64,000 nucleotides of DNA from Escherichia coli O127:H6 str. E2348/69 (GTDB lineage Bacteria; Pseudomonadota; Gammaproteobacteria; Enterobacterales; Enterobacteriaceae), in assembly GCF_000026545.1 (NCBI RefSeq), contig NC_011601.1; one strand, 5' to 3'. Positions 1,612-57,847 of the stretch are shown here, in pieces. Both the position numbers and the translations under genes were made by a program. Position 1 is the stretch's first letter, and each line of letters opens with the position of its first letter. The notes beneath the pieces were generated by a model. The model ran no database searches. It saw only the letters and a program-made list of their open reading frames with translations, and was not told the DNA's origin.

Positions 1612-1794
1612 TCTCTGTAGTGATTAAATAAAAAATACTTCAGAGTGTACCTGCAAAGGTTCACTGCGAAGTTTTGCTCTTTAAAAATCTGGATCAAGCT
1701 GAAAATTGAAACACTGAACAACGAGAGTTGTTCGTGAGTCTCTCAAATTTTCGCAACACGATGATGGATCGCAAGAAACATCTTCGGGTTGTGA

Positions 1795-4796: not shown

Positions 4797-4916
4797 TGCC
4801 TGGCGGCCTTAGCGCGGTGGTCCCACCTGACCCCATGCCGAACTCAGAAGTGAAACGCCGTAGCGCCGATGGTAGTGTGGGGTCTCCCCATGCGAGAGTA
4901 GGGAACTGCCAGGCAT
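4797..4916 (+). rRNA. rrfA: 5S ribosomal RNA
   Basis: 120-nt sequence TGCCTGGCGGCC...GGGAACTGCCAGGCAT matching enterobacterial 5S. Confidence 0.95.
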
Positions 4917-4930
4917 CAAATTTAGCGAAA

Positions 4931-4957
4931 GGCCCAGTCGGAAGACTGGGCTTTTTT
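4931..4957 (+). terminator. Rho-independent terminator of the rRNA operon
   Basis: GC-rich hairpin GGCCCAGTC-GGAA-GACTGGGC followed by TTTTTT. Confidence 0.8.
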
Positions 4958-5018
4958 GCGTTGGTGCGGAATAAATACCGGATGCGACGCTGGCGCGTCT
5001 TATCCAGCCTACTTTTGC

Positions 5019-5546
5019 TTATCCGTCCTGCTTTTGCATCCACTCCACCACAAAATCAGCCAGCCCCTCAACATCATTAATATCCAGTAACGCGACATCA
5101 AGATTAAGCGGCACATCACTGGCTACAGCAATAACATGCCTGTCTATCACTAATTCTTCCGGTCGATGTCCGGCTCCATCGCGAAACAGCACAATCTTTG
5201 CGATCTCTTCATGCTTAAACCCTTCGACCAGAATCAAATCCAGCTTTGAGGTATCCATTCGACTTGCGAGAAAATGTAGATCCAGCTCTTCTTCGTCTGG
5301 TGTTTCCGTCATCAAGGCCCATCGTTGCTGGCTGGCAACGATGGTTTGTGCCGCGCCAGCCTTGCGCAGCTCATAGCTATCTTTGCCTGGCTTATCAACA
5401 TCCATATCATGGTGCGTATGCTTAATCAGCCCTGGACGGATCCCTCTGGCGCATAATGCCGGGATCAGTTTTTTCAAAAGCGTAGTTTTTCCGGTACCAC
5501 TCCACGCGGCAAAGGCGAGTAACGGTATCATCGTTTTTCCTGCCAT
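5019..5546 (-). CDS. mobB: Molybdopterin-guanine dinucleotide biosynthesis adapter protein MobB (P-loop GTPase)
   Basis: 175-aa ORF with Walker A (SGTGKTTL); recognised MobB sequence; overlaps mobA start as in the mobAB operon. Confidence 0.9.
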
Positions 5547-11078: not shown

Positions 11079-13865
11079 ATGGTTCAGATCCCCCAAAATC
11101 CACTTATCCTTGTAGATGGTTCATCTTATCTTTATCGCGCATATCACGCGTTTCCCCCGCTGACTAACAGCGCAGGCGAGCCGACCGGTGCGATGTATGG
11201 TGTCCTCAACATGCTGCGCAGTCTGATCATGCAATATAAACCGACGCATGCAGCGGTGGTCTTTGACGCCAAGGGAAAAACCTTTCGTGATGAACTGTTT
11301 GAACATTACAAATCACATCGCCCACCAATGCCGGACGATCTGCGTGCACAAATCGAACCCTTGCACGCGATGGTTAAAGCGATGGGACTGCCGCTGCTGG
11401 CGGTTTCTGGCGTAGAAGCGGACGACGTTATCGGTACTCTGGCGCGCGAAGCCGAAAAAGCCGGGCGTCCGGTGCTGATCAGCACTGGCGATAAAGATAT
11501 GGCGCAGCTGGTGACACCAAATATCACGCTTATCAACACCATGACGAATACCATCCTCGGACCGGAAGAGGTGGTGAATAAGTACGGCGTGCCGCCAGAA
11601 CTGATCATCGATTTCCTGGCGCTGATGGGTGACTCCTCTGATAACATTCCCGGCGTACCGGGCGTCGGTGAAAAAACCGCGCAGGCATTGCTGCAAGGTC
11701 TTGGCGGGCTGGATACGCTGTATGCCGAGCCAGAAAAAATTGCTGGGTTGAGCTTCCGTGGCGCGAAAACAATGGCAGCGAAGCTCGAGCAAAACAAAGA
11801 AGTTGCTTATCTCTCATACCAGCTGGCGACGATTAAAACCGACGTTGAGCTGGAGCTGACCTGTGAACAACTGGAAGTGCAGCCACCGGCGGCGGAAGAG
11901 TTGTTAGGGCTGTTCAAAAAGTATGAGTTCAAACGCTGGACTGCTGATGTCGAAGCGGGCAAATGGCTACAGGCTAAAGGGGCGAAACCCGCAGCCAGGC
12001 CGCAGGAAACCAGTGTTGCAGACGAAGCGCCAGAAGTGACGGCAACGGTGATTTCTTATGACAACTACGTCACCATCCTTGATGAAGAAACACTGAAAGA
12101 GTGGATTGCGAAGCTGGAAAAAGCGCCGGTATTTGCATTTGATACCGAAACCGACAGCCTTGATAACATCTCTGCTAACCTGGTCGGGCTTTCTTTTGCT
12201 ATCGAGCCAGGCGTAGCGGCATATATTCCGGTTGCTCATGATTATCTTGATGCGCCCGATCAAATCTCTCGCGAGCGTGCACTCGAGTTGCTAAAACCGC
12301 TGCTGGAAGATGAAAAGGCGCTGAAGGTCGGGCAAAACCTGAAATACGATCGCGGTATTCTGGCGAACTACGGCATTGAACTACGTGGGATTGCGTTTGA
12401 TACCATGCTGGAGTCCTACATTCTCAATAGCGTTGCCGGGCGTCACGATATGGACAGCCTCGCGGAACGTTGGTTGAAGCACAAAACCATCACTTTTGAA
12501 GAGATTGCGGGTAAAGGCAAAAATCAACTGACCTTTAACCAGATTGCCCTCGAAGAAGCCGGACGTTACGCCGCCGAAGATGCAGATGTCACCTTGCAGT
12601 TGCATCTGAAAATGTGGCCGGATCTGCAAAAACACAAAGGGCCGTTGAACGTCTTCGAGAATATCGAAATGCCGCTGGTGCCGGTGCTTTCACGCATTGA
12701 ACGTAACGGTGTGAAGATCGATCCGAAAGTGCTGCACAATCACTCTGAAGAGCTCACCTTGCGTCTGGCTGAGCTGGAAAAGAAAGCTCATGAAATTGCA
12801 GGTGAAGAATTTAACCTTTCTTCCACCAAGCAGTTACAAACCATTCTGTTTGAAAAACAGGGCATTAAACCGCTGAAGAAAACTCCGGGTGGCGCGCCGT
12901 CAACGTCGGAAGAGGTACTGGAAGAACTGGCGCTGGACTATCCGTTGCCAAAAGTGATTCTGGAGTATCGTGGTCTGGCGAAGCTGAAATCGACCTACAC
13001 CGACAAGCTGCCGTTGATGATCAACCCGAAAACCGGGCGTGTACATACCTCTTATCACCAGGCAGTAACCGCAACGGGACGTTTATCGTCAACCGATCCT
13101 AACCTGCAAAACATTCCGGTGCGTAACGAAGAAGGTCGCCGTATCCGCCAGGCGTTTATTGCGCCAGAGGATTATGTGATTGTCTCAGCGGACTACTCGC
13201 AGATTGAACTGCGCATTATGGCGCATCTCTCGCGTGACAAAGGCTTGCTGACCGCATTCGCGGAAGGAAAAGATATCCACCGTGCAACGGCGGCAGAAGT
13301 GTTTGGTTTGCCACTGGAAACCGTCACCAGCGAGCAACGTCGTAGCGCGAAAGCGATCAACTTTGGTCTGATTTATGGCATGAGTGCTTTCGGTCTGGCG
13401 CGGCAATTGAACATTCCGCGTAAAGAAGCGCAGAAGTACATGGACCTTTACTTCGAACGCTACCCTGGCGTGCTGGGGTATATGGAACGCACCCGTGCTC
13501 AGGCGAAAGAGCAGGGCTACGTTGAAACGCTGGACGGACGCCGTCTGTATCTGCCGGATATCAAATCCAGCAATGGTGCTCGTCGTGCAGCGGCTGAACG
13601 TGCAGCCATTAACGCGCCAATGCAGGGAACCGCCGCCGACATTATCAAACGGGCGATGATTGCCGTTGATGCGTGGCTACAGGCTGAGCAACCGCGTGTG
13701 CGTATGATCATGCAGGTACACGATGAACTGGTATTTGAAGTCCATAAAGATGATGTCGATGCCGTCGCGAAGCAGATTCATCAACTGATGGAAAACTGTA
13801 CCCGTCTGGATGTGCCGTTACTGGTGGAAGTGGGGAGTGGCGAAAACTGGGATCAGGCGCACTAA
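11079..13865 (+). CDS. polA: DNA polymerase I
   Basis: 928-aa ORF with 5'-3' exonuclease, 3'-5' exonuclease and polymerase motifs (e.g. [17 protein letters not shown]). Confidence 0.97.
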
Positions 13866-14013
13866 GATTCGCCTGAACATGCCCTTTTTTCGTAAGTAAG
13901 CAACATAAGCTGTCACGTTTTGTGATGGCTATTAGAAATTCCTATGCAACAACTGAAAAAAAATTACAAAAAATGCTTTCTGAACTGAACAAAAAAGAGT
14001 AAAGTTAGTCGCG

Positions 14014-14122
14014 TAGGGTACAGAGGTAAGATGTTCTATCTTTCAGACCTTTTACTTCACGTAATCGGATTTGGCTGAATATTTTAGCCGCCCCAGTCAG
14101 TAATGACTGGGGCGTTTTTTAT
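14014..14122 (+). ncRNA. spf: Spot 42 small regulatory RNA
   Basis: Sequence GTAGGGTACAGAGGTAAGATGTTCTATCTTTCAGACC...GCCGCCCCAGTCAGTAATGACTGGGGCGTTTTTTA recognised as Spot 42, ending in its intrinsic terminator; lies directly downstream of polA as expected. Confidence 0.85.
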
Positions 14123-14139
14123 TGGGCGAAAGAAAAGAT

Positions 14140-14245
14140 CCGTAATGCCTGATACGCCATGTTTATCAGGCCAACGGTAGAATTGTAATCTATTGAATTT
14201 ACGGGCCGGATACGCCATATCCGGCACAAGCATTAAGGCAAGAAA
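14140..14245. repeat. REP (repetitive extragenic palindromic) element cluster
   Basis: Palindromic units GCCTGATACGCCATG...TATCAGGCC and GGCCGGATACGCCATATCCGGCAC in the spf-engB intergenic region. Confidence 0.7.
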
Positions 14246-14246
14246 A

Positions 14247-14879
14247 TTATTCGCCGTCCTGCGTTTCTTCTACAGGCTGCATCTCGCTAAACCAGGTATC
14301 CAGTTTCTGCCGCAGCTTGTCCACGCCTTGTTTCTTCAGCGAAGAAAACGTTTCAACCTGCACATCACCGTTAAACGCCAGCACCGCTTCACGCACCATA
14401 TTCAATTGCGCTTTACGTGCGCCGCTTGCCAGTTTGTCCGCTTTGGTCAGCAGTACCAGCACGGCGATATTGCTGTCTACCGCCCACTCAATCATCTGCT
14501 GATCCAAATCTTTCAGCGGATGGCGAATATCCATTAGCACCACCAGACCTTGCAGGCTCTGACGTTTTTCGAGGTACTCGCCGAGCGCGCGCTGCCATTT
14601 GCGCTTCATCTCTTCCGGGACTTCCGCATAACCGTACCCAGGCAAGTCAACCAGACGCTTGCCGTCAGCCACTTCAAACAGGTTGATAAGCTGGGTGCGC
14701 CCCGGGGTTTTTGAGGTACGAGCCAGGCTTTTCTGGTTAGTCAGCGTGTTCAGCGCGCTGGATTTACCTGCGTTGGAACGGCCTGCAAAAGCCACTTCAA
14801 TTCCGGTATCGGAAGGTAGGTGGCGAATATCAGGCGCACTCATCACAAAATGCGTCTGTTGATAATTCAAATTAGTCAA
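14247..14879 (-). CDS. engB: Ribosome biogenesis GTP-binding protein EngB/YihA
   Basis: GTPase with G1 motif GRSNAGKSS; 210-aa product if translation starts at the TTG at 14877-14879 ([12 protein letters not shown]...), which is my recollection of the reference start; the track ORF begins 5 codons upstream at an ATG. Confidence 0.85.
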
Positions 14880-15149
14880 AGCGGTCGTCTCCATCAGTCA
14901 AAGCTTTGCGGCGATTATACCTGAACCATAATAAAAGGCGGATTTTTCGGCGTGAGCGTTGTAAGTAAAAGCCATATGCTTTGTGAGACATTGCCGATAG
15001 TCTTTATGCGAAATAGCAGAGAAAATTCTGCGACGTATGTCAAATAAGCTATATAAATCAGTTAATTGCTTTTATATAAAACTCTGAAAATGTGCAAATA
15101 CTGATGGCGGTTGATTGTTTATTTAAAGCAAAGGCGTAAAGTAGCACCC

Positions 15150-15394
15150 ATAGAGCGAGGACGCTAACAGGAACAATGACTCAGGATGAGGGTCAGGAGC
15201 GCCAGGAGGCGAAGACAGAGGATTGTCAGGAAGATAAACGTCCGGAGACGTAATTAAATGGAAATGGAATCAACACGGATTGTTCCGGCTAATGGAAAAA
15301 CAGGGTGTGTTGGCGGCCTGCAAGGATTGTAAGACCCGTTAAGGGTTATGAGTCAGGAAAAAAGGCGACAGAGTAATCTGTCGCCTTTTTTCTT
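15150..15394 (+). ncRNA. csrC: CsrC small RNA (CsrA-sequestering)
   Basis: About 245 nt containing many GGA motifs (CAGGATGAGGGTCAGGAGCGCCAGGAGGCGAAGACAGAGGATTGTCAGGAAG...) and ending in the terminator AAAAAAGGCGACAGAGTAATCTGTCGCCTTTTTTC; between engB and yihI as in E. coli. Ends are approximate. Confidence 0.75.
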
Positions 15395-15460
15395 TGCTTG
15401 CTTTCTGTTAGATTCCGCCGCAAATCTATACTGAATAAAACGGCTAAAAGACGAACCATT

Positions 15461-15970
15461 ATGAAACCATCATCTTCAAACTCACGCAGCAAAGGTCATG
15501 CAAAAGCGCGTCGAAAAACACGCGAGGAGCTGGATCAGGAAGCTCGTGACCGTAAGCGTCAGAAAAAACGTCGTGGTCATGCGCCGGGCAGCCGCGCAGC
15601 GGGCGGTAACACCACGTCAGGCAGCAAAGGTCAGAACGCACCAAAAGATCCACGTATTGGCAGTAAAACCCCTATTCCATTGGGCGTGACTGAAAAAGTC
15701 ACCAAACAGCACAAACCGAAGAGTGAGAAACCTATGCTTTCACCGCAGGCGGAGTTGGAGTTACTGGAAACGGATGAGCGTCTGGATGCGCTGCTGGAAC
15801 GTCTGGAAGCAGGCGAAACCCTGAGCGCCGAAGAGCAATCCTGGGTGGATGCCAAACTGGATCGTATTGATGAGTTGATGCAGAAACTCGGCCTCTCTTA
15901 TGACGATGACGAAGAAGAGGAAGAAGACGAGAAGCAAGAAGACATGATGCGTCTGCTGCGGGGCAACTAA
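15461..15970 (+). CDS. yihI: Der GTPase-activating protein YihI
   Basis: 169-aa highly basic N-terminus and acidic C-terminus ([11 protein letters not shown]), starting at the ATG at 15461 ([13 protein letters not shown]...); the track ORF is an upstream extension. Confidence 0.85.
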
Positions 15971-17589: not shown

Positions 17590-17760
<171 letters not shown>

Positions 17761-22213: not shown

Positions 22214-22261
22214 GCACCAATATAGTGCTTCAATGGAAACATTAAGCACCATATTGGTGCA
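22214..22261. promoter_or_regulatory. Tandem NtrC enhancer binding sites upstream of glnAp2
   Basis: Two dyad-symmetric sites TGCACCAATATAGTGCT and GCACCATATTGGTGCA resembling the NtrC consensus TGCACCA-N3-TGGTGCA, about 100-140 nt upstream of the sigma-54 promoter. Confidence 0.75.
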
Positions 22262-22412
22262 ATGACCTTTGGATAACCCTTTTTATGCTCCGTGAAAGCG
22301 ATCACAAAGGGACTCTGCAATACTTGTTTGCGGAGGATGTTTGTGATCCTGTTTTGTAGTGCGATTAATCCGTGTACAATAACGCGCTATTTCTAATGCC
22401 TGAGGCAAAGTT

Positions 22413-41249: not shown

Positions 41250-44200
41250 TTACACCTTTTCCACATTCACAAGGAAGGACTTAAACTCCGGCGTCTGCGT
41301 GTTCGCATCACCGACGAATGGCGTCAACGTATTGGCAATAAAGCCTTTTTTCGCAACACCTTCATAGCCCCAGTGAATCGGAATACCGATGGTATCGATA
41401 TCTTTGCCGTTTGCTTTCAGCGTGCGAATACGTTTGGTCACTACCGCTTTGGCTTTGATATAGCCACGGTTGGAGGAGACTTTCACAGTATCGCCCTGGG
41501 CAATGCCAAGTTTATTCGCCAGCGACTCCCCGATTTCCACAAACTGCTCTGGTTGCAAAATCGCATTCAACAGCGCGTGTTTGGTCCAGTAGTGGAAGTG
41601 CTCGGTCAGACGATAGGTGGTTCCGACATACGGGAACTTATCGGCTTTACCCAATGCTTCGGCGTCGTCTTTAAAGATACGCGCAGCCGGGTTCGAGATA
41701 ACGTTTGGATGCAGCGGGTTAGTTCCCAGCGGCGTTTCAAACGGCTCGTAGTGTTCCGGGAACGGACCTTCCGCCATCTTATCGAGGGCAAACAGACGTC
41801 CCATGCCTTCCTGCTGCATGATAAACGGCCCTACGCCGCTGCCCGGAGGCGCTGCGCTGTAGTCCGGAATATCCCAGCCGGTCCACTTAGTGCCGTCCCA
41901 TTTCAGCAACTGACGCTTCGGATCCCATGGGTTACCCTGCGGATCTGCGGAGGCGCGGTTATACAGAATGCGGCGGTTTAGCGGCCATGCCCATGCCCAG
42001 CCCAGCGTGTTACCGAGGCCAGACGGATCGGCGTTATCACGACGCGCCATCTGGTTGCCTTCCGGCGTCCAGCTACCGGCGAAAATCCAGCAGCCACAGG
42101 AGGTTGTACCGTCATCGCGCAGTTGGGCGAACGAGCTAAGTTGTTGGCCTTTCTTGACGATAACCGCACCGGTTGCCGGGTCGGTAATATCGGCCAGCGC
42201 TTTGCCGTTGCTCTCCATTGCCACTTCTTCTGAAGATGGCTCATGCGGAATGGCGTAGTTCCAGGTCATGTTCAGCACCTGGTCCGGGTTCGCGCCACCC
42301 TGTTCGGCATACATCTTGCGCAAGCGCAGGAAGATACCGGAGAGGATCTCGCCATCAGTCAGCGCAATCCCCGGGGCGTCCGCACCTTTCCAGTGCCACT
42401 GTAACCAGCGACCTGAGTTAACGATAGAACCGTTCTCTTCCGCGAAGCAGGTCGATGGTAGACGGAACACTTCGGTCTGGATCTTCGACGAGTCAACTTC
42501 GTTCAGCTCACCGTGGTTCTGCCAGAAGTTAGAGGTTTCAGTGTTCAGCGGGTCGATAGTCACGAGGAATTTCAGCTTCGACAGACAGCCGATCACTTTG
42601 TTTTTGTTCGGGAATGAGGCAACAGGGTTAAAGCCCTGGCAGATATAGCCATTGACCTTGCCTTCTTTCATCATCTCGAAGTATTGCAGGACGTCGTAGC
42701 CTTTATCCCACTTCGGCAACCAGTCAAAGCCCCAGCTATTTTCCGCCGTCGCTTTATCACCAAAGAAGGCCTTCATCATAGAGACGAAGAATTTCGGGTA
42801 GTTGCCCCAGTAGTTTACCTGGCCTTCCAGCAGCGGTTTTGGCGTGTTGGCGGTAAGGTAGGTTTGCAGATCGGTCTGCTTCTCGCTTGGCAGCGTCATG
42901 TAACCTGGCAGGCTCTGCGACAGCAGCCCCAGGTCGGTCAGCCCCTGAATATTGGAGTGACCGCGCAGGGCGTTAACGCCGCCGCCAGCCATCCCCATAT
43001 TGCCGAGCAGCAACTGGATCATCGCCATCGTACGGATGTTCTGCGCACCGATGGAGTGTTGCGTCCAGCCGAGCGCGTAAAGGAACGAGGCAGTTTTATC
43101 GTGAGCACTGGTTTCGGCGATGTATTCGCAGACTTTCAGGAATGCGTCTTTTGGCGTACCACAGATGTTTTCAACCACATCTGGCGTGTAGCGGGAAACG
43201 TGCTGTTTCAGCAAGTTCCACACGCAACGTGGATGTTGCAGGGTAGTATCGCGTTTGGCGAAGCCGTTTTCGTCCAGTTCGTAAGTCCAGGTGGACTTAT
43301 CGTACTTGCGTTTTTCCGCGTCGTAGCCGGTGAACAGGCCATCTTCAAAGCCGTAATCCTCACGCACGATCAGGCTAGCGTTGGTATAGGCTTCGGTGTA
43401 TTCGCGGTTGAATTTTTCATTGTTCAGCAGGTACAGCAATACGCCTGACAGGAAAGCAATGTCAGTACCGGAACGGATAGGGGCATAGTAGTCAGCCACC
43501 GCCGCTGTACGTGTAAAGCGAGGATCGATCACAATCAGCTTCGCGCCGTTGTGAATTTTGGCTTCCATCGCCCAGCGGAACCCGACCGGGTGAGCTTCAG
43601 CGGCGTTACCGCCCATCACCACGACGAGGTTGGCATTCTTGATGTCGACCCAGTGGTTGGTCATCGCACCGCGACCAAATGTTGGAGCAAGACTTGCTAC
43701 CGTTGGTCCGTGTCAGACACGCGCCTGGTTGTCGACCGCGAGCATACCCAGCGCGCGGGAGAATTTTTGCGTTAAATAGCCGGTTTCGTTACTCGACGCG
43801 GAAGCACACAGCATCCCGGTGGAGAGCCAGCGGTTAACAGTCACGCCTTCGGCGTTTTGCGCAATGTAGTTCGCATCGCGGTCTTCTTTCATCAGTTTGG
43901 CGATGCGATCAAACGCCTCTTCCCAACTGATTTGCTGCCATTTATCAGAACCTGGCGCACGGTATTCCGGAAACTTCAGGCGGCTTTCGGAGTGGATGAA
44001 ATCCACCAGGCCAGCGCCTTTCGGACAAAGTGCTCCGCGGTTGACCGGGTGATCCGGGTCACCTTCGATATGGAAGATAGATGCTTTGGCGTTTTTTGCT
44101 CCGTCACCGAGGCTGTACATCAACAGCCCACAGCCTACGGAACAATAGGTGCAGGTATTACGGGTTTCGCGGGTGCGCAGCAGTTTATACTGCCGGGTTT

Positions 44201-45640: not shown

Positions 45641-47476
45641 ATGAGTACATTACAGTTACCTGGCAGTTCATATTCTACTGAAGTTAATTTAAACGGCTTA
45701 ATTGAGGTGCTCAGTAAGCACCTTTACTCTACCCCCGTGGTCGCCGTGCGCGAGCTGGTGCAGAACGGACACGATGCGATCGTGCGCCGCAGGATTGAGC
45801 AGCCCGATGCGCCAAAGGATAACCAAATTCGTGTGGTGGCAGACGTGGCGAAGTCCACCATCACCATTACCGATACCGGTGCGGGTTTGACAGAAAGCGA
45901 AATTCACGGCTTCCTGGCAACAGTGGGCGTGGGTTATACCCGAATGTTGCGCCAGCAGGATGACAACACCGGTTTAATTGGTATGTTCGGCCTTGGTTTC
46001 TTGTCAGCATTTGTACTTGCAAAAGAGGTCACGGTGTTGACCACATCCTGGCAAACGCCGGATCAGAGCTGGAAATACCACTCTACCGACGGGCAAAAAT
46101 ATACCGTTACGCCGCATCAGTCCTCGGAAACGGGAACGCAGGTGATTCTGACGCTCAAAGAAGAGTACAGCCATCTGGCGAGTAACAATTTGCTGAACCG
46201 CGTTCTTTCCCGCTACTGTGTATTGCTGCACGAACCGGTCTATGTCGGCGATGCCAGCGAGCCGGTAAATAAACTTCAACCACCGTGGCGTGAAGTTGCC
46301 CCCGAAGGCGTAACCATACACCGCGCGCTGGTACAGCGTAAAAATCTCGCCTTTGCCGCCCAGTTTGAATCCTCCTTCGAACCGATTTGCACCATTCCGG
46401 TGGTGCCAGCGGGAATGAGCGACGCGGTTGGGATTTTATGGATTCAGGATGGCGCGACCTACGGCACCAGCGATAACCGCAACCTGTCGTTGTTTTTGCG
46501 CGGCATGTTACTGGATGATGAAGCGCGTGAGTTGTTACCGCCCTGGGCCGGATTTATTGGCGGCGTGATTGAGTCATCGAAACTGACGCCGACGGCGAGC
46601 AGGGAAGATCTCCAGCGGGATGCAACCTGGGTTGCGGTACAGGAGGCGTTAAAAGAGGCGCTGATTTCTGGTTTGTCCGATCTCGCACAAAATCAGCCAG
46701 AAATCTGGCGGCGGGTATTAATGCGCCACAACGAAGCGTTGCTGGGTGCGGCCTTGTGTGATGACCGTCTGTTTGATTTGCTCAAAGATCGCTTGCAGGT
46801 GCCAACGTCAAAAGGGGCGCTGCTGGCGAAGGATTTACGCGTTAATAACAGCATTCATATTCTGTTAAGCCGCGACGGCGGTTTTGAAGAGATGTTGTTC
46901 CATATTCTGCAACGGCCTGTAGCCCGTGGCGATCGCTATGCGGTGGTGCCATTTTTACGCCGTTGGGCGCTGTTATATCACTGCCGGATTGTCGAAGTCG
47001 GTACGCAAACGGGTAATGAGCAGTTGTTCAGCCTGGCAGAATTACCCAAAGAGCAGGTGGCTTATCTGGAAGAGCATCTCTGCGACGGCGAGCAATTAAT
47101 TATCTCACGCTTCGAACCCGCCGTTTTACCGTTAGTGGTTACACCAGACCGCGAAGCAGAATTAAAACAAATTCTCGAACAGGATGACGCAGATAAACGC
47201 ATCAGTACCGCAGCGTTAATGCTGGCGCGGCAATTTACCTCGCAAATCCAAAAATCTAAAACTTCAAGTCTGTATATCAACCTTAATAACCCCTGTGTCA
47301 TGCAACTGGTGACGGCCTTACAACACCATCAACAGCCAGCGGCAGCATTACGGTTATTAAAATCGCTGAAAGTGATTTTGTGCTCCAGCGGTAATAAAGA
47401 ACAGCAGTGGGATTTACACCAGGCACTGGAAGATTTTACTCAGGTTATTCCTGTCTTAATTAATCAAGGAAAATAA
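45641..47476 (+). CDS. Hsp90/HtpG-family paralog (GHKL ATPase), full length
   Basis: 611-aa ORF aligning by eye with HtpG through the N-terminal ATPase domain: N-box RELVQNGHDA (HtpG RELISNASDA), G1 ITDTGAGL (ISDNGVGM), G2 LIGMFGLGFLSAF (LIGQFGVGFYSAF), and beyond. Not the housekeeping htpG (wrong locus, divergent). Confidence 0.8.
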   Translation: MSTLQLPGSSYSTEVNLNGLIEVLSKHLYSTPVVAVRELVQNGHDAIVRRRIEQPDAPKDNQIRVVADVAKSTITITDTGAGLTESEIHGFLATVGVGYTRMLRQQDDNTGLIGMFGLGFLSAFVLAKEVTVLTTSWQTPDQSWKYHSTDGQKYTVTPHQSSETGTQVILTLKEEYSHLASNNLLNRVLSRYCVLLHEPVYVGDASEPVNKLQPPWREVAPEGVTIHRALVQRKNLAFAAQFESSFEPICTIPVVPAGMSDAVGILWIQDGATYGTSDNRNLSLFLRGMLLDDEARELLPPWAGFIGGVIESSKLTPTASREDLQRDATWVAVQEALKEALISGLSDLAQNQPEIWRRVLMRHNEALLGAALCDDRLFDLLKDRLQVPTSKGALLAKDLRVNNSIHILLSRDGGFEEMLFHILQRPVARGDRYAVVPFLRRWALLYHCRIVEVGTQTGNEQLFSLAELPKEQVAYLEEHLCDGEQLIISRFEPAVLPLVVTPDREAELKQILEQDDADKRISTAALMLARQFTSQIQKSKTSSLYINLNNPCVMQLVTALQHHQQPAAALRLLKSLKVILCSSGNKEQQWDLHQALEDFTQVIPVLINQGK

Positions 47477-47477
47477 A

Positions 47478-49784
47478 ATGGATACATGGGAGTGGTACAA
47501 CAAATATAGTCAAGAGTTGCGTGATGCCGGGCAAGAATATATTCCGCAGCTTATTGATGATTTTTCAGAAAGTGTTTTGCACCTACAAATAGAAAAATGT
47601 GATTCGCTATTGCCGGAAATGAAAGCACTGAATCAAGTCGCCAAAAATCCGTGGCTGGAAATATTTATTGGTCACTGGGAAATGCGTCATCGCCTGACTA
47701 ACTATGAAGAAGGTGAAAAGGTGCTGCCAGACGTGGTAGCGCTGTTTGAAAAAGCGCATCGGGAAGAGGCGAAAGATTGCCCGCAATCTATCTGCGTTAC
47801 CCAGGATTTATCAGCCTGCTACGAAAATATTGACGCACCAGGCTGGGCGAATGAACGCATGGCGGTGTGTGAAGAAACCATCGCGCGCATTGATCCGACC
47901 TGGAGCTGTTTTCAGTGTTTGTCCACTGAATATGCCAGCGCACTGATAGATTCCAAAAGAACAGAGGAGGCACTGGCTTATCTGGATCGGCAAATCGACG
48001 CAGTTAAAGCAGCCGGGAAAGATGATATTGATCCATTACTTTATACTCGCGCCGATATTCTGATTGAACTTCAGCGTTATGATGAAGCACGCAAATTGAT
48101 TGATGAGCTGACAGAAGCCAATGATTACTGGGGCCGCGACCGCATTAGTAATCACCTAAAAAAACTGTACATCATGGCGTTATGCGGGCAGGACGAAGAA
48201 GTCTGGGAGGAATTACCGCGTTGGTCCGATCTGACTCCGCATTCATGGGGGTCATGGCTGAAAATCATTACTGTGTTACTTCCCCGTCATCCACAAAGAA
48301 ACAACTGGCAACTGGCGCGCATCATCCAGAAAATGCTGGAGCAACGTTCACAGGCCGGGGCGCATCGAAAAGTGGTTAATCTGGCAAAACTACAAATCAC
48401 CCTGGCGCTGGAGCGTGAATCCGTCTGGGTTGCCAAAATAGCGATGAAACTGGCCCAGCGACACATGCCAAAATTACGCGCGTTACTGGGCGTCGATCGC
48501 GAGTTTCTCGAACTTAGCGAAAAAATCGCCACCAAAGAAGCAGAGTTGCTTGCTCGTCCGGTTGTAGAAGTACCTGAAAATAGCGACGAAGAAACGCAGC
48601 CAGATCCAGAAAAAGACGTCGAAATATTCCGCCGCGCTTATCTGAACACACCAGACGATGCAGAGTTACTGGGCAAACTGGTCAATGCGTTAAATGCCTG
48701 TAATGCGATTAATGAGTCAATTGAACTTCTGCAACGCTATGTTGAAAGCCACCTCCATGAAGATAATGGTCTTTGCTTCGATCTGTTGGATTTATTGCTC
48801 CACCGTGACGATCTGCAAACCATTGAGCACCTGGCGAAGCAGTATGAACAGGCGGGGCTGCTACATATGGCCTTGTGGTTCCGGGCGCGAGTGATCAACC
48901 AACAGGAAGACTGGAGTGAACTGGAGTCGATTGGACAACAGTTGCTGCAAAACGAAAAAGGGCGTGAGTGGGTTGGCGTTTATCGCATGTGCTCCTGGGC
49001 AGCACAAAAACAGGAAGCCTGGGATCGACAGCTGGATTATTTACAACAATTGCAGCAACTGATGATTAGCCGTGAAGAAGATATTCGTAATCTCCAGTGG
49101 GATATCATGGCGACCGCCAGCATCCTGCAACAATGGGATTTGGTTCGTGCTATTGCTGCTGAACTGGAAATCGAACTCACGGAAGGTGAAGGTTTTATTG
49201 ACGAAAAATGGGGGCTGCTAAACATTCGCTTCCGGGAAAATTATGAATACCGCTATTACTATGCTCAACGTATTGGGCCGGTAACCGCAAGGATCATTGA
49301 GCCAACTTACCGGACCGATTATCCGCAACATGTTGATGAGGTTGTGGTATTCGATGCAGAAATGTTGAATACCCGACCAGAGGATGAGGAAGAGCAGAAG
49401 AATTTCACTCCGCTTTATGGGTGCCTGAAAACCATTATCCCGACCGAATACGGCGAGTCCTGGTTCTGCGAAGGTGTCATGCCTGGTGAAGAAGAGTTTA
49501 ATACTTTCCGTGAGGCGCTCCGTGAACGAAACTGGTACTACTGGAGCAACAGTAATGACGACTATACGTTAACGGACAGTCATCAAGGAGAAGGCGCTGA
49601 GCCGCTGTCTGCATTCTATTTTGTTATCAGTGCGCCGCGTTCAGTTTCTAAAGGTGATATCGACAAGACCTTGCACGAATTGACCGCTGACTGGAAACAT
49701 CCGTTGTGCTGGTGGCGTCTTGCCAAAGAAGCCGGGGCGAATGAAGAGAAACATGCTGCTATTGCCGAGAGATATGGAATGTAA
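47478..49784 (+). CDS. Large hypothetical protein (768 aa), predicted alpha-helical/TPR-like with Cys cluster; translationally coupled to the Hsp90 paralog
   Basis: ATG 1 nt after the upstream stop, with an AAGGAAAA Shine-Dalgarno inside the upstream gene; helix-rich composition, Cys-rich stretch (DCPQSIC...SACYEN...AVCEET...WSCFQC), acidic segment (PENSDEETQPDPEKD); no catalytic motif recognised by eye. Confidence 0.6.
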   Translation: MDTWEWYNKYSQELRDAGQEYIPQLIDDFSESVLHLQIEKCDSLLPEMKALNQVAKNPWLEIFIGHWEMRHRLTNYEEGEKVLPDVVALFEKAHREEAKDCPQSICVTQDLSACYENIDAPGWANERMAVCEETIARIDPTWSCFQCLSTEYASALIDSKRTEEALAYLDRQIDAVKAAGKDDIDPLLYTRADILIELQRYDEARKLIDELTEANDYWGRDRISNHLKKLYIMALCGQDEEVWEELPRWSDLTPHSWGSWLKIITVLLPRHPQRNNWQLARIIQKMLEQRSQAGAHRKVVNLAKLQITLALERESVWVAKIAMKLAQRHMPKLRALLGVDREFLELSEKIATKEAELLARPVVEVPENSDEETQPDPEKDVEIFRRAYLNTPDDAELLGKLVNALNACNAINESIELLQRYVESHLHEDNGLCFDLLDLLLHRDDLQTIEHLAKQYEQAGLLHMALWFRARVINQQEDWSELESIGQQLLQNEKGREWVGVYRMCSWAAQKQEAWDRQLDYLQQLQQLMISREEDIRNLQWDIMATASILQQWDLVRAIAAELEIELTEGEGFIDEKWGLLNIRFRENYEYRYYYAQRIGPVTARIIEPTYRTDYPQHVDEVVVFDAEMLNTRPEDEEEQKNFTPLYGCLKTIIPTEYGESWFCEGVMPGEEEFNTFREALRERNWYYWSNSNDDYTLTDSHQGEGAEPLSAFYFVISAPRSVSKGDIDKTLHELTADWKHPLCWWRLAKEAGANEEKHAAIAERYGM

Positions 49785-57679: not shown

Positions 57680-57847
57680 ACGTCCGTGCCTGTTGCCGGA
57701 TGTACGATCTGTAGGCCGGATAAGGCACTCGTGCCGCATCCGGCATTTGAGCAGGATGCCTGATGCGACGCTGTCGCGTCTTATCAGGCCTACAACTATT
57801 GCCGACCCGTAGGCCGGATAAGGCACTTGTGCCGCATCCGGCAGTGT

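Follow-up and report, generated by a model that had tools for sequence, protein, structure and literature searches.

The DNA analysed here, a window of 64,000 nucleotides, is 100% identical to the chromosome of Escherichia coli E2348/69 (EPEC O127:H6) and corresponds to positions 4709516-4773515 of NZ_CP059840.2 in reverse complement, with zero differences. The stretch under study almost certainly represents the polA-spf-yihA-csrC-yihI segment of this chromosome, with two regulatory RNA genes that are independent of each other and were characterised before, spf (Spot 42) and csrC (CsrC). Spot 42 and CsrC are textbook regulators of E. coli. Both genes are found at their usual places on either side of yihA (engB), so that the finding as such is an ordinary one.

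An overview of the locus is given in Table 1. The borders of the features were obtained by mapping the curated features of K-12 MG1655 onto the window. The spf gene is located directly 3' of polA and is convergent with yihA. The csrC gene is found between yihA and yihI, which are encoded on opposite strands, and is transcribed in the direction of yihI.

To identify structured RNAs, the whole window was scanned with Rfam 15 at gathering thresholds. A score of 122.8 bits (cut-off 80; E = 3.6e-24, model positions 1-115 of 115) was obtained for the Spot_42 model (RF00021) at 14003-14121 (+), and one of 276.7 bits (cut-off 61; E = 2.9e-87, model positions 1-255 of 255) for the CsrC model (RF00084) at 15150-15403 (+). 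Both matches slightly overrun the mature RNAs, since the models include flanking columns. A sequence-only reading of the same DNA had proposed the two RNAs flanking engB and had named an Rfam scan as the test that could refute them; both families scored far above their cut-offs at these places, and the open reading frame between them is indeed YihA/YsxC (= EngB) according to TIGR03598. Its placement of CsrC at about 15150-15394 is exact for the 245-nt RNA. For Spot 42, placed at 14014-14122, the identity is borne out by Rfam and by the identity to K-12, but the coordinates are off by one nucleotide, the start being 14013.

Within 13800-15600, a permissive E-value scan with Rfam revealed no further RNA family in the spacers. 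The sub-threshold matches of this region (Thr_leader, miRNA families, SpF25, BjrC68, VrrA, NsiR1, ctRNA and a reverse-strand CsrC fragment) were rejected as generic-terminator noise because all of them overlap the terminator hairpin of spf or csrC, with VrrA spanning the entire spf gene. An inverted-repeat search of the spacer between spf and yihA identified two REP-like palindromes, GCCTGATA...TATCAGGC at 14147-14171 and GCCGGATA...TATCCGGC at 14205-14225. The K-12 annotation does not list them as repeats, and the Rfam naRNA4 model does not match them.

Table 1 Features of the polA-yihI segment (coordinates refer to the 64,000-nt window)
Feature	Position	Strand	Evidence and remarks
polA (DNA polymerase I), upstream neighbour of spf	11079-13865	+	NCBIfam NF004397, 1251 bits; polA in E2348/69 and K-12 annotation
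CRP-like site TGTGATGGCTATTAGA upstream of spf, centre about -84.5	13921-13936	+	Match to the pattern TGTGA-N6-TNANA (sequence match only)
Candidate -10 element of spf, TAAAGT, -13 to -8	14000-14005	+	Read from the sequence
spf, 109-nt Spot 42 sRNA	14013-14121 (K-12 RefSeq end: 14123, 111 nt)	+	Rfam RF00021; identity to K-12 b3864
spfP, 15-codon ORF in Spot 42, translation MFYLSDLLLHVIGFG followed by stop UGA	14031-14078	+	Translation; annotated as spfP in E2348/69 and K-12
Sole GGA of Spot 42	14067-14069	+	Within single-stranded 14061-14072; unpaired in the MFE fold
spf Rho-independent terminator, 11-bp GC-rich stem and T6 run	14089-14120	+	Terminator scan; fold; covariation at 7/10 stem pairs
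yihA (= engB / ysxC), ribosome-biogenesis GTPase, 210 aa	14247-14879	-	NCBIfam TIGR03598 (YihA/YsxC), 252 bits vs cut-off 124; annotation
UvrY upstream activating site of csrC	14960-14999	+	Half-site TGTAAG at 14960-14965; 18-nt imperfect inverted repeat TGTGAGACATTGCCGATA at 14982-14999, centre about -160
csrC, 245-nt CsrC sRNA, 14 GGA motifs	15150-15394 (K-12 RefSeq end: 15395, 246 nt)	+	Rfam RF00084; identity to K-12 b4457
Spurious PGAP pseudogene inside csrC ('hypothetical protein; frameshifted; internal stop')	15176-15342	+	E2348/69 and RM14723 annotation; not a real gene
csrC Rho-independent terminator, 18-bp stem, A6/T6 arms	15355-15394	+	Terminator scan; fold; pairs invariant or covarying
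yihI (Der GTPase-activating protein), downstream neighbour of csrC	15461-15970	+	NCBIfam NF003560, 169 bits vs 90; annotation

Spot 42, its embedded reading frame and the promoter regions

The spf gene is identical to K-12 b3864 at 111 of 111 nt. The copy in the window resembles K-12 spf (b3864, RF00021) with spfP (b4837) in sequence, in its position between polA and yihA, in its terminator and in the ORF for the 15-aa SpfP. There is no detectable difference in the gene itself, and the region upstream of the transcription start site differs by one indel and one substitution, at 13882 and 13973.

In the predicted fold of Spot 42, the 5' hairpin is separated by a single-stranded stretch (14061-14072) from a second hairpin (14073-14089), which is followed by the terminator (14089-14114) with its T6 run. 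Its minimum free energy is -40.6 kcal/mol (z = -5.1 compared to dinucleotide shuffles). For comparison across species, Spot 42 loci were gathered with a 17-nt core pattern, yielding 120 loci from one genome per species, and the window sequence was aligned with 33 of them for the covariation analysis (34 species in total). Compensatory changes were found at 11 of 26 pairs, among them 4/4 pairs of the second hairpin and 7/10 of the terminator. As the 5' hairpin does not vary among the species sampled, it is uninformative for covariation; this invariance is partly imposed by the 17-nt search pattern. The sole GGA motif of the RNA is located in the single-stranded stretch; CsrA was reported to bind Spot 42 at its single GGA, which stabilises the RNA or protects it from RNase E (PMC8916003).

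Spot 42 is not purely non-coding. The RNA is known as a dual-function transcript that also encodes SpfP, a small protein that was shown experimentally to bind CRP and that blocks CRP activation at some promoters (PMC8916003). In the window, a Shine-Dalgarno motif, GAGG (14023-14026), precedes the start codon AUG of spfP at 14031. About 100 of 116 species loci retain the frame of 15 codons and the position of its stop, a count in which the first seven residues are fixed by the search pattern; Shewanella-like genomes have lost the frame. The sequence-only reading had described both RNAs as not represented in the track of open reading frames. This applies to the RNAs, but Spot 42 does hold a real ORF, which is missing from the track because it is too short.

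CRP is known to repress spf (PMC8916003). The CRP-like match upstream of spf, known here from the pattern, fits well to one half-site and poorly to the other; it may be the site through which this repression is exerted. No promoter was detected upstream of spf or csrC when 13800-15600 was scanned with a stringent sigma-70 consensus. The hexamer TAAAGT that precedes spf is also found upstream of csrC at 15137-15142, where it likewise spans -13 to -8 relative to the annotated 5' end. Since both promoters are too far from the consensus for the sigma-70 scan, the two hexamers are listed as candidate -10 elements, read by eye. The K-12 promoters likewise fail the stringent scan, as their sequence is the same or nearly the same.

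CsrC, its GGA motifs and its allele

The CsrC RNA of the window contains 14 GGA motifs in 245 nt, compared to a window-wide mean of 3.3 per 245 nt (standard deviation 1.9). This count is the maximum on either strand of the 64 kb and is reached at 0.07% of the window positions, all of which overlap csrC. Among dinucleotide-preserving shuffles, 17 of 2000 reach 14 GGA motifs. CsrC, described as GGA-motif-rich in the sequence-only reading, is thus the densest such cluster in the window. Placed on the Rfam consensus structure, six of the motifs fall into hairpin loops and five into single-stranded linkers, so that 11 of 14 are unpaired; the other three are partly paired. The minimum free energy fold is more stable than that of shuffled sequences (z = -6.1), and CsrC, like Spot 42, has a strong intrinsic terminator at its 3' end. 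In an alignment of 25 Enterobacteriaceae, compensatory changes were observed at 12 of 39 CsrC pairs, and hairpins that present GGA in the loop, such as CGCCAGGAGGCG and ACGUCCGGAGACGU, are conserved.

CsrC is related to CsrB (RF00018), which belongs to the same clan (CL00106); both are multi-GGA sponges of CsrA that are activated by BarA-UvrY. CsrB, in contrast to csrC, is longer, has more GGA sites, adjoins syd and needs IHF for activation by UvrY (PMC4682653). The RNA in the window matches the CsrC model and not the CsrB model of Rfam. UvrY sites at csrC were reported from ChIP-exo and DNase footprinting (PMC4682653). In the window, the TGTAAG half-site, located 16 bp 5' of the repeat, and the imperfect inverted repeat TGTGAGACATTGCCGATA are exact matches to these published sites.

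Compared to K-12 b4457, csrC is identical at 243 of 246 nt. The copy in the window shares with K-12 csrC (b4457, RF00084) the position between yihA and yihI, the UvrY inverted repeat, the terminator and every GGA site. It differs by C to T at 15235, C to T at 15259 (ACGGA to AUGGA) and A to T at 15293 (AAGGA to AUGGA). The substitutions at 15259 and 15293 flank GGA motifs, and none of the three destroys a GGA. A strain-specific csrC allele was considered and rejected: of the 5424 E. coli genomes that gave a match, 2502 (about 46%) carry an allele at least 99% identical to that of the window (within 2 nt), so the allele is a common one and not a strain-specific lesion.

These differences bear on the question of whether spf and csrC could be inert relics in E2348/69, either untranscribed or broken by strain-specific changes in promoter or gene sequence. 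Expression of the two genes in this strain is inferred, the consensus promoter scan was negative, and csrC has three substitutions, together with several more in its upstream spacer, relative to K-12; all of this would fit such relics. Against this, Spot 42 does not differ from that of K-12, and of the 5424 E. coli genomes in which it was matched, 5423 carry it at 99% identity or more. The csrC allele is shared with the many genomes counted above, and the GGA motifs, the two terminators and the UvrY inverted repeat are all undamaged. The chance that the two sequences are relics is accordingly considered very small, and intact genes are the preferred reading.

Annotation of the two RNA genes

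The two RNA genes are poorly represented in automated annotation. In RefSeq records produced by PGAP, spf is usually unannotated, and csrC is overlaid by a pseudogene, as seems to be the case for most E. coli entries of RefSeq; H4J01_RS25580 and C5099_RS25195 are examples of locus tags given to this pseudo-CDS. A view of the locus based on ORFs or on PGAP either misses spf or displays only the later-added spfP micro-ORF, and shows csrC under a bogus pseudogene. According to the sequence-only reading, such regulatory RNA might pass for empty intergenic space; this understates the problem, as csrC also carries a spurious pseudogene CDS besides spf usually being left unannotated.

Taken at face value, the pseudogene would mean that the csrC stretch codes for a protein or did so until recently. 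A pseudo-CDS is placed inside csrC by PGAP in both E2348/69 and RM14723, and all RefSeq records sampled show a 'hypothetical protein' at the csrC match. However, stop codons are found in all three forward frames of 15176-15342, the region reaches the above score against the CsrC covariance model, and its compensatory changes are of the RNA type, keeping the hairpins with GGA in the loop and not any reading frame. The curated K-12 record, moreover, annotates csrC as an ncRNA. On the strength of the stops in all frames and the RNA-type conservation, a protein-coding csrC was rejected, its remaining probability being negligible. The csrC 'protein' is most readily accounted for by a mis-called ORF that was passed on by homology transfer, and RefSeq systematically mis-annotates csrC, a known sRNA gene.

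For genome scans, 14013-14123 and 15150-15395 should be masked as known ncRNA genes, as they would otherwise be flagged as empty or anomalous. The scientific weight of the locus is small, given known RNAs at canonical core-genome positions in a sequenced reference EPEC strain; its practical value lies in annotation.

Conservation, regulation and further features of the window

Among 5426 complete E. coli genomes, the 1.6-kb block from the 3' end of polA to the start of yihI is present in 5425, and spf and csrC are each present in 5424. The core-genome synteny assumed in the sequence-only reading is supported by these counts, and the locus marks this side of the window as part of the conserved core genome. 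Across the 116 species loci with Spot 42, spf is directly preceded by polA in the same orientation in 97 and directly followed by yihA in the opposite orientation in 99; 86 loci show both neighbors, and many of the remaining ones are cut by contig ends. The order polA-spf-yihA is held across Enterobacterales, Vibrionaceae, Aeromonas and Shewanella.

Sequence matches to csrC obtained with nhmmer are confined to Enterobacteriaceae, apart from weak ones in Erwiniaceae and one Yersinia locus. An Rfam scan of 11 distant loci (from Citrobacter, Yersinia, Serratia, Edwardsiella, Erwinia, Vibrio, Photobacterium, Aeromonas and Shewanella) detected Spot_42 in all of them, and a gathering-level CsrC match among these 11 in Citrobacter only. 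A GGA-rich stretch on the yihI strand, with 12-18 GGA per 250 nt, is nonetheless located between yihA and yihI in Yersinia, Serratia, Edwardsiella, Erwinia, Vibrio and Photobacterium. The count is 14-18 in nine of these loci, three from Yersinia, one each from Serratia, Edwardsiella and Erwinia, and three from Vibrio and Photobacterium. In Pectobacterium, Dickeya and Brenneria, the gap between yihA and yihI measures 224-347 nt and contains 1-3 GGA, and the GGA-rich stretch is absent from it. The csrC gene was previously described as always located next to yihA/yihI, a universal context (Kulkarni et al. 2006, PMC1488887). The distant GGA-rich spacers are the positional csrC homologues already described in that study for Yersinia, Serratia, Edwardsiella, Erwinia and Vibrionaceae. 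They share the GGA-rich yihA-yihI spacer with the window but, unlike csrC of the window, are too diverged to reach the gathering score of the Rfam CsrC model. This model thus covers only part of the positional csrC family.

For E2348/69, expression of spf and csrC, binding of Hfq, CsrA and CRP, and the regulatory outcomes are expected to follow the literature. Transcription of spf would occur when cAMP-CRP is low (PMC8916003), giving rise to Spot 42. Spot 42 is known to bind Hfq and to base-pair with galK and other carbon-utilisation mRNAs (PMC8916003). In the presence of glucose, mRNAs that serve the use of non-preferred carbon sources, galK among them, would be repressed through pairing with its single-stranded regions. 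SpfP, made from the same transcript, would block activation by CRP at some promoters, and the two activities of Spot 42 would both strengthen catabolite repression. CsrC is known to be activated by BarA-UvrY and to sequester CsrA via its GGA sites, and its turnover involves CsrD and RNase E (PMC4682653, PMC1488887). The 245-nt CsrC of the window, a protein-sponge RNA, would be transcribed upon binding of phosphorylated UvrY (BarA-UvrY) to the inverted repeat at 14982-14999. Its 14 GGA motifs, mostly exposed in hairpin loops and single-stranded linkers, would then bind CsrA dimers and titrate CsrA off its mRNA targets in this strain.

The adjacency of spf and csrC around yihA might be regarded as a functionally coupled 'carbon-status sRNA' neighborhood and not as a neutral accident of synteny. 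The Csr system and Spot 42 are connected through the reported binding of CsrA to the single GGA of Spot 42 (14067-14069), which stabilises this RNA. In the literature, UvrY ChIP-exo signal is drawn at spf as well as at csrC, and the pairing of spf with yihA, with a GGA-rich spacer between yihA and yihI beyond it, is retained from Enterobacteriaceae to Vibrionaceae. If the co-location did matter, for instance through a shared UvrY-bound domain or local co-transcriptional coupling, this would add a new layer to the cross-talk between Csr and CRP. The conservation of the co-location could, on the other hand, merely reflect linkage to the essential genes polA and yihA, and functional coupling is considered improbable.

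Several further elements were observed elsewhere in the window. A two-gene insert between fdhD and frvR (45641-49784, +) encodes a 611-aa GHKL/HSP90-like ATPase (Pfam HATPase_c_3, HSP90) and a 768-aa TPR protein. PADLOC returned only weak matches for this insert, which are TmtA/REase-like and of the N-terminal ATPase type. The insert looks like accessory DNA within otherwise core synteny and is possibly a defence-type pair. At the gathering level, Rfam additionally detected the sRNA ES222 at 22224-22331 (+, 133 bits), naRNA4/REP325-type elements at 17657-17728 (+) and 57714-57790 (+), a SECIS_3 element at 43660-43718 (-) in the gene for the alpha subunit of formate dehydrogenase, and StyR-44 at 1679-1787 (+) in the rrn spacer upstream of the 23S gene. 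The end of rrnA in K-12 was reported to carry dual terminators that enclose the read-through sRNA rrA (PMC8144298). In the window, the region downstream of the rrnA 5S gene (4915-5020) displays, by eye, a single hairpin with a T run at about 4930-4957, followed by REP-like sequence.
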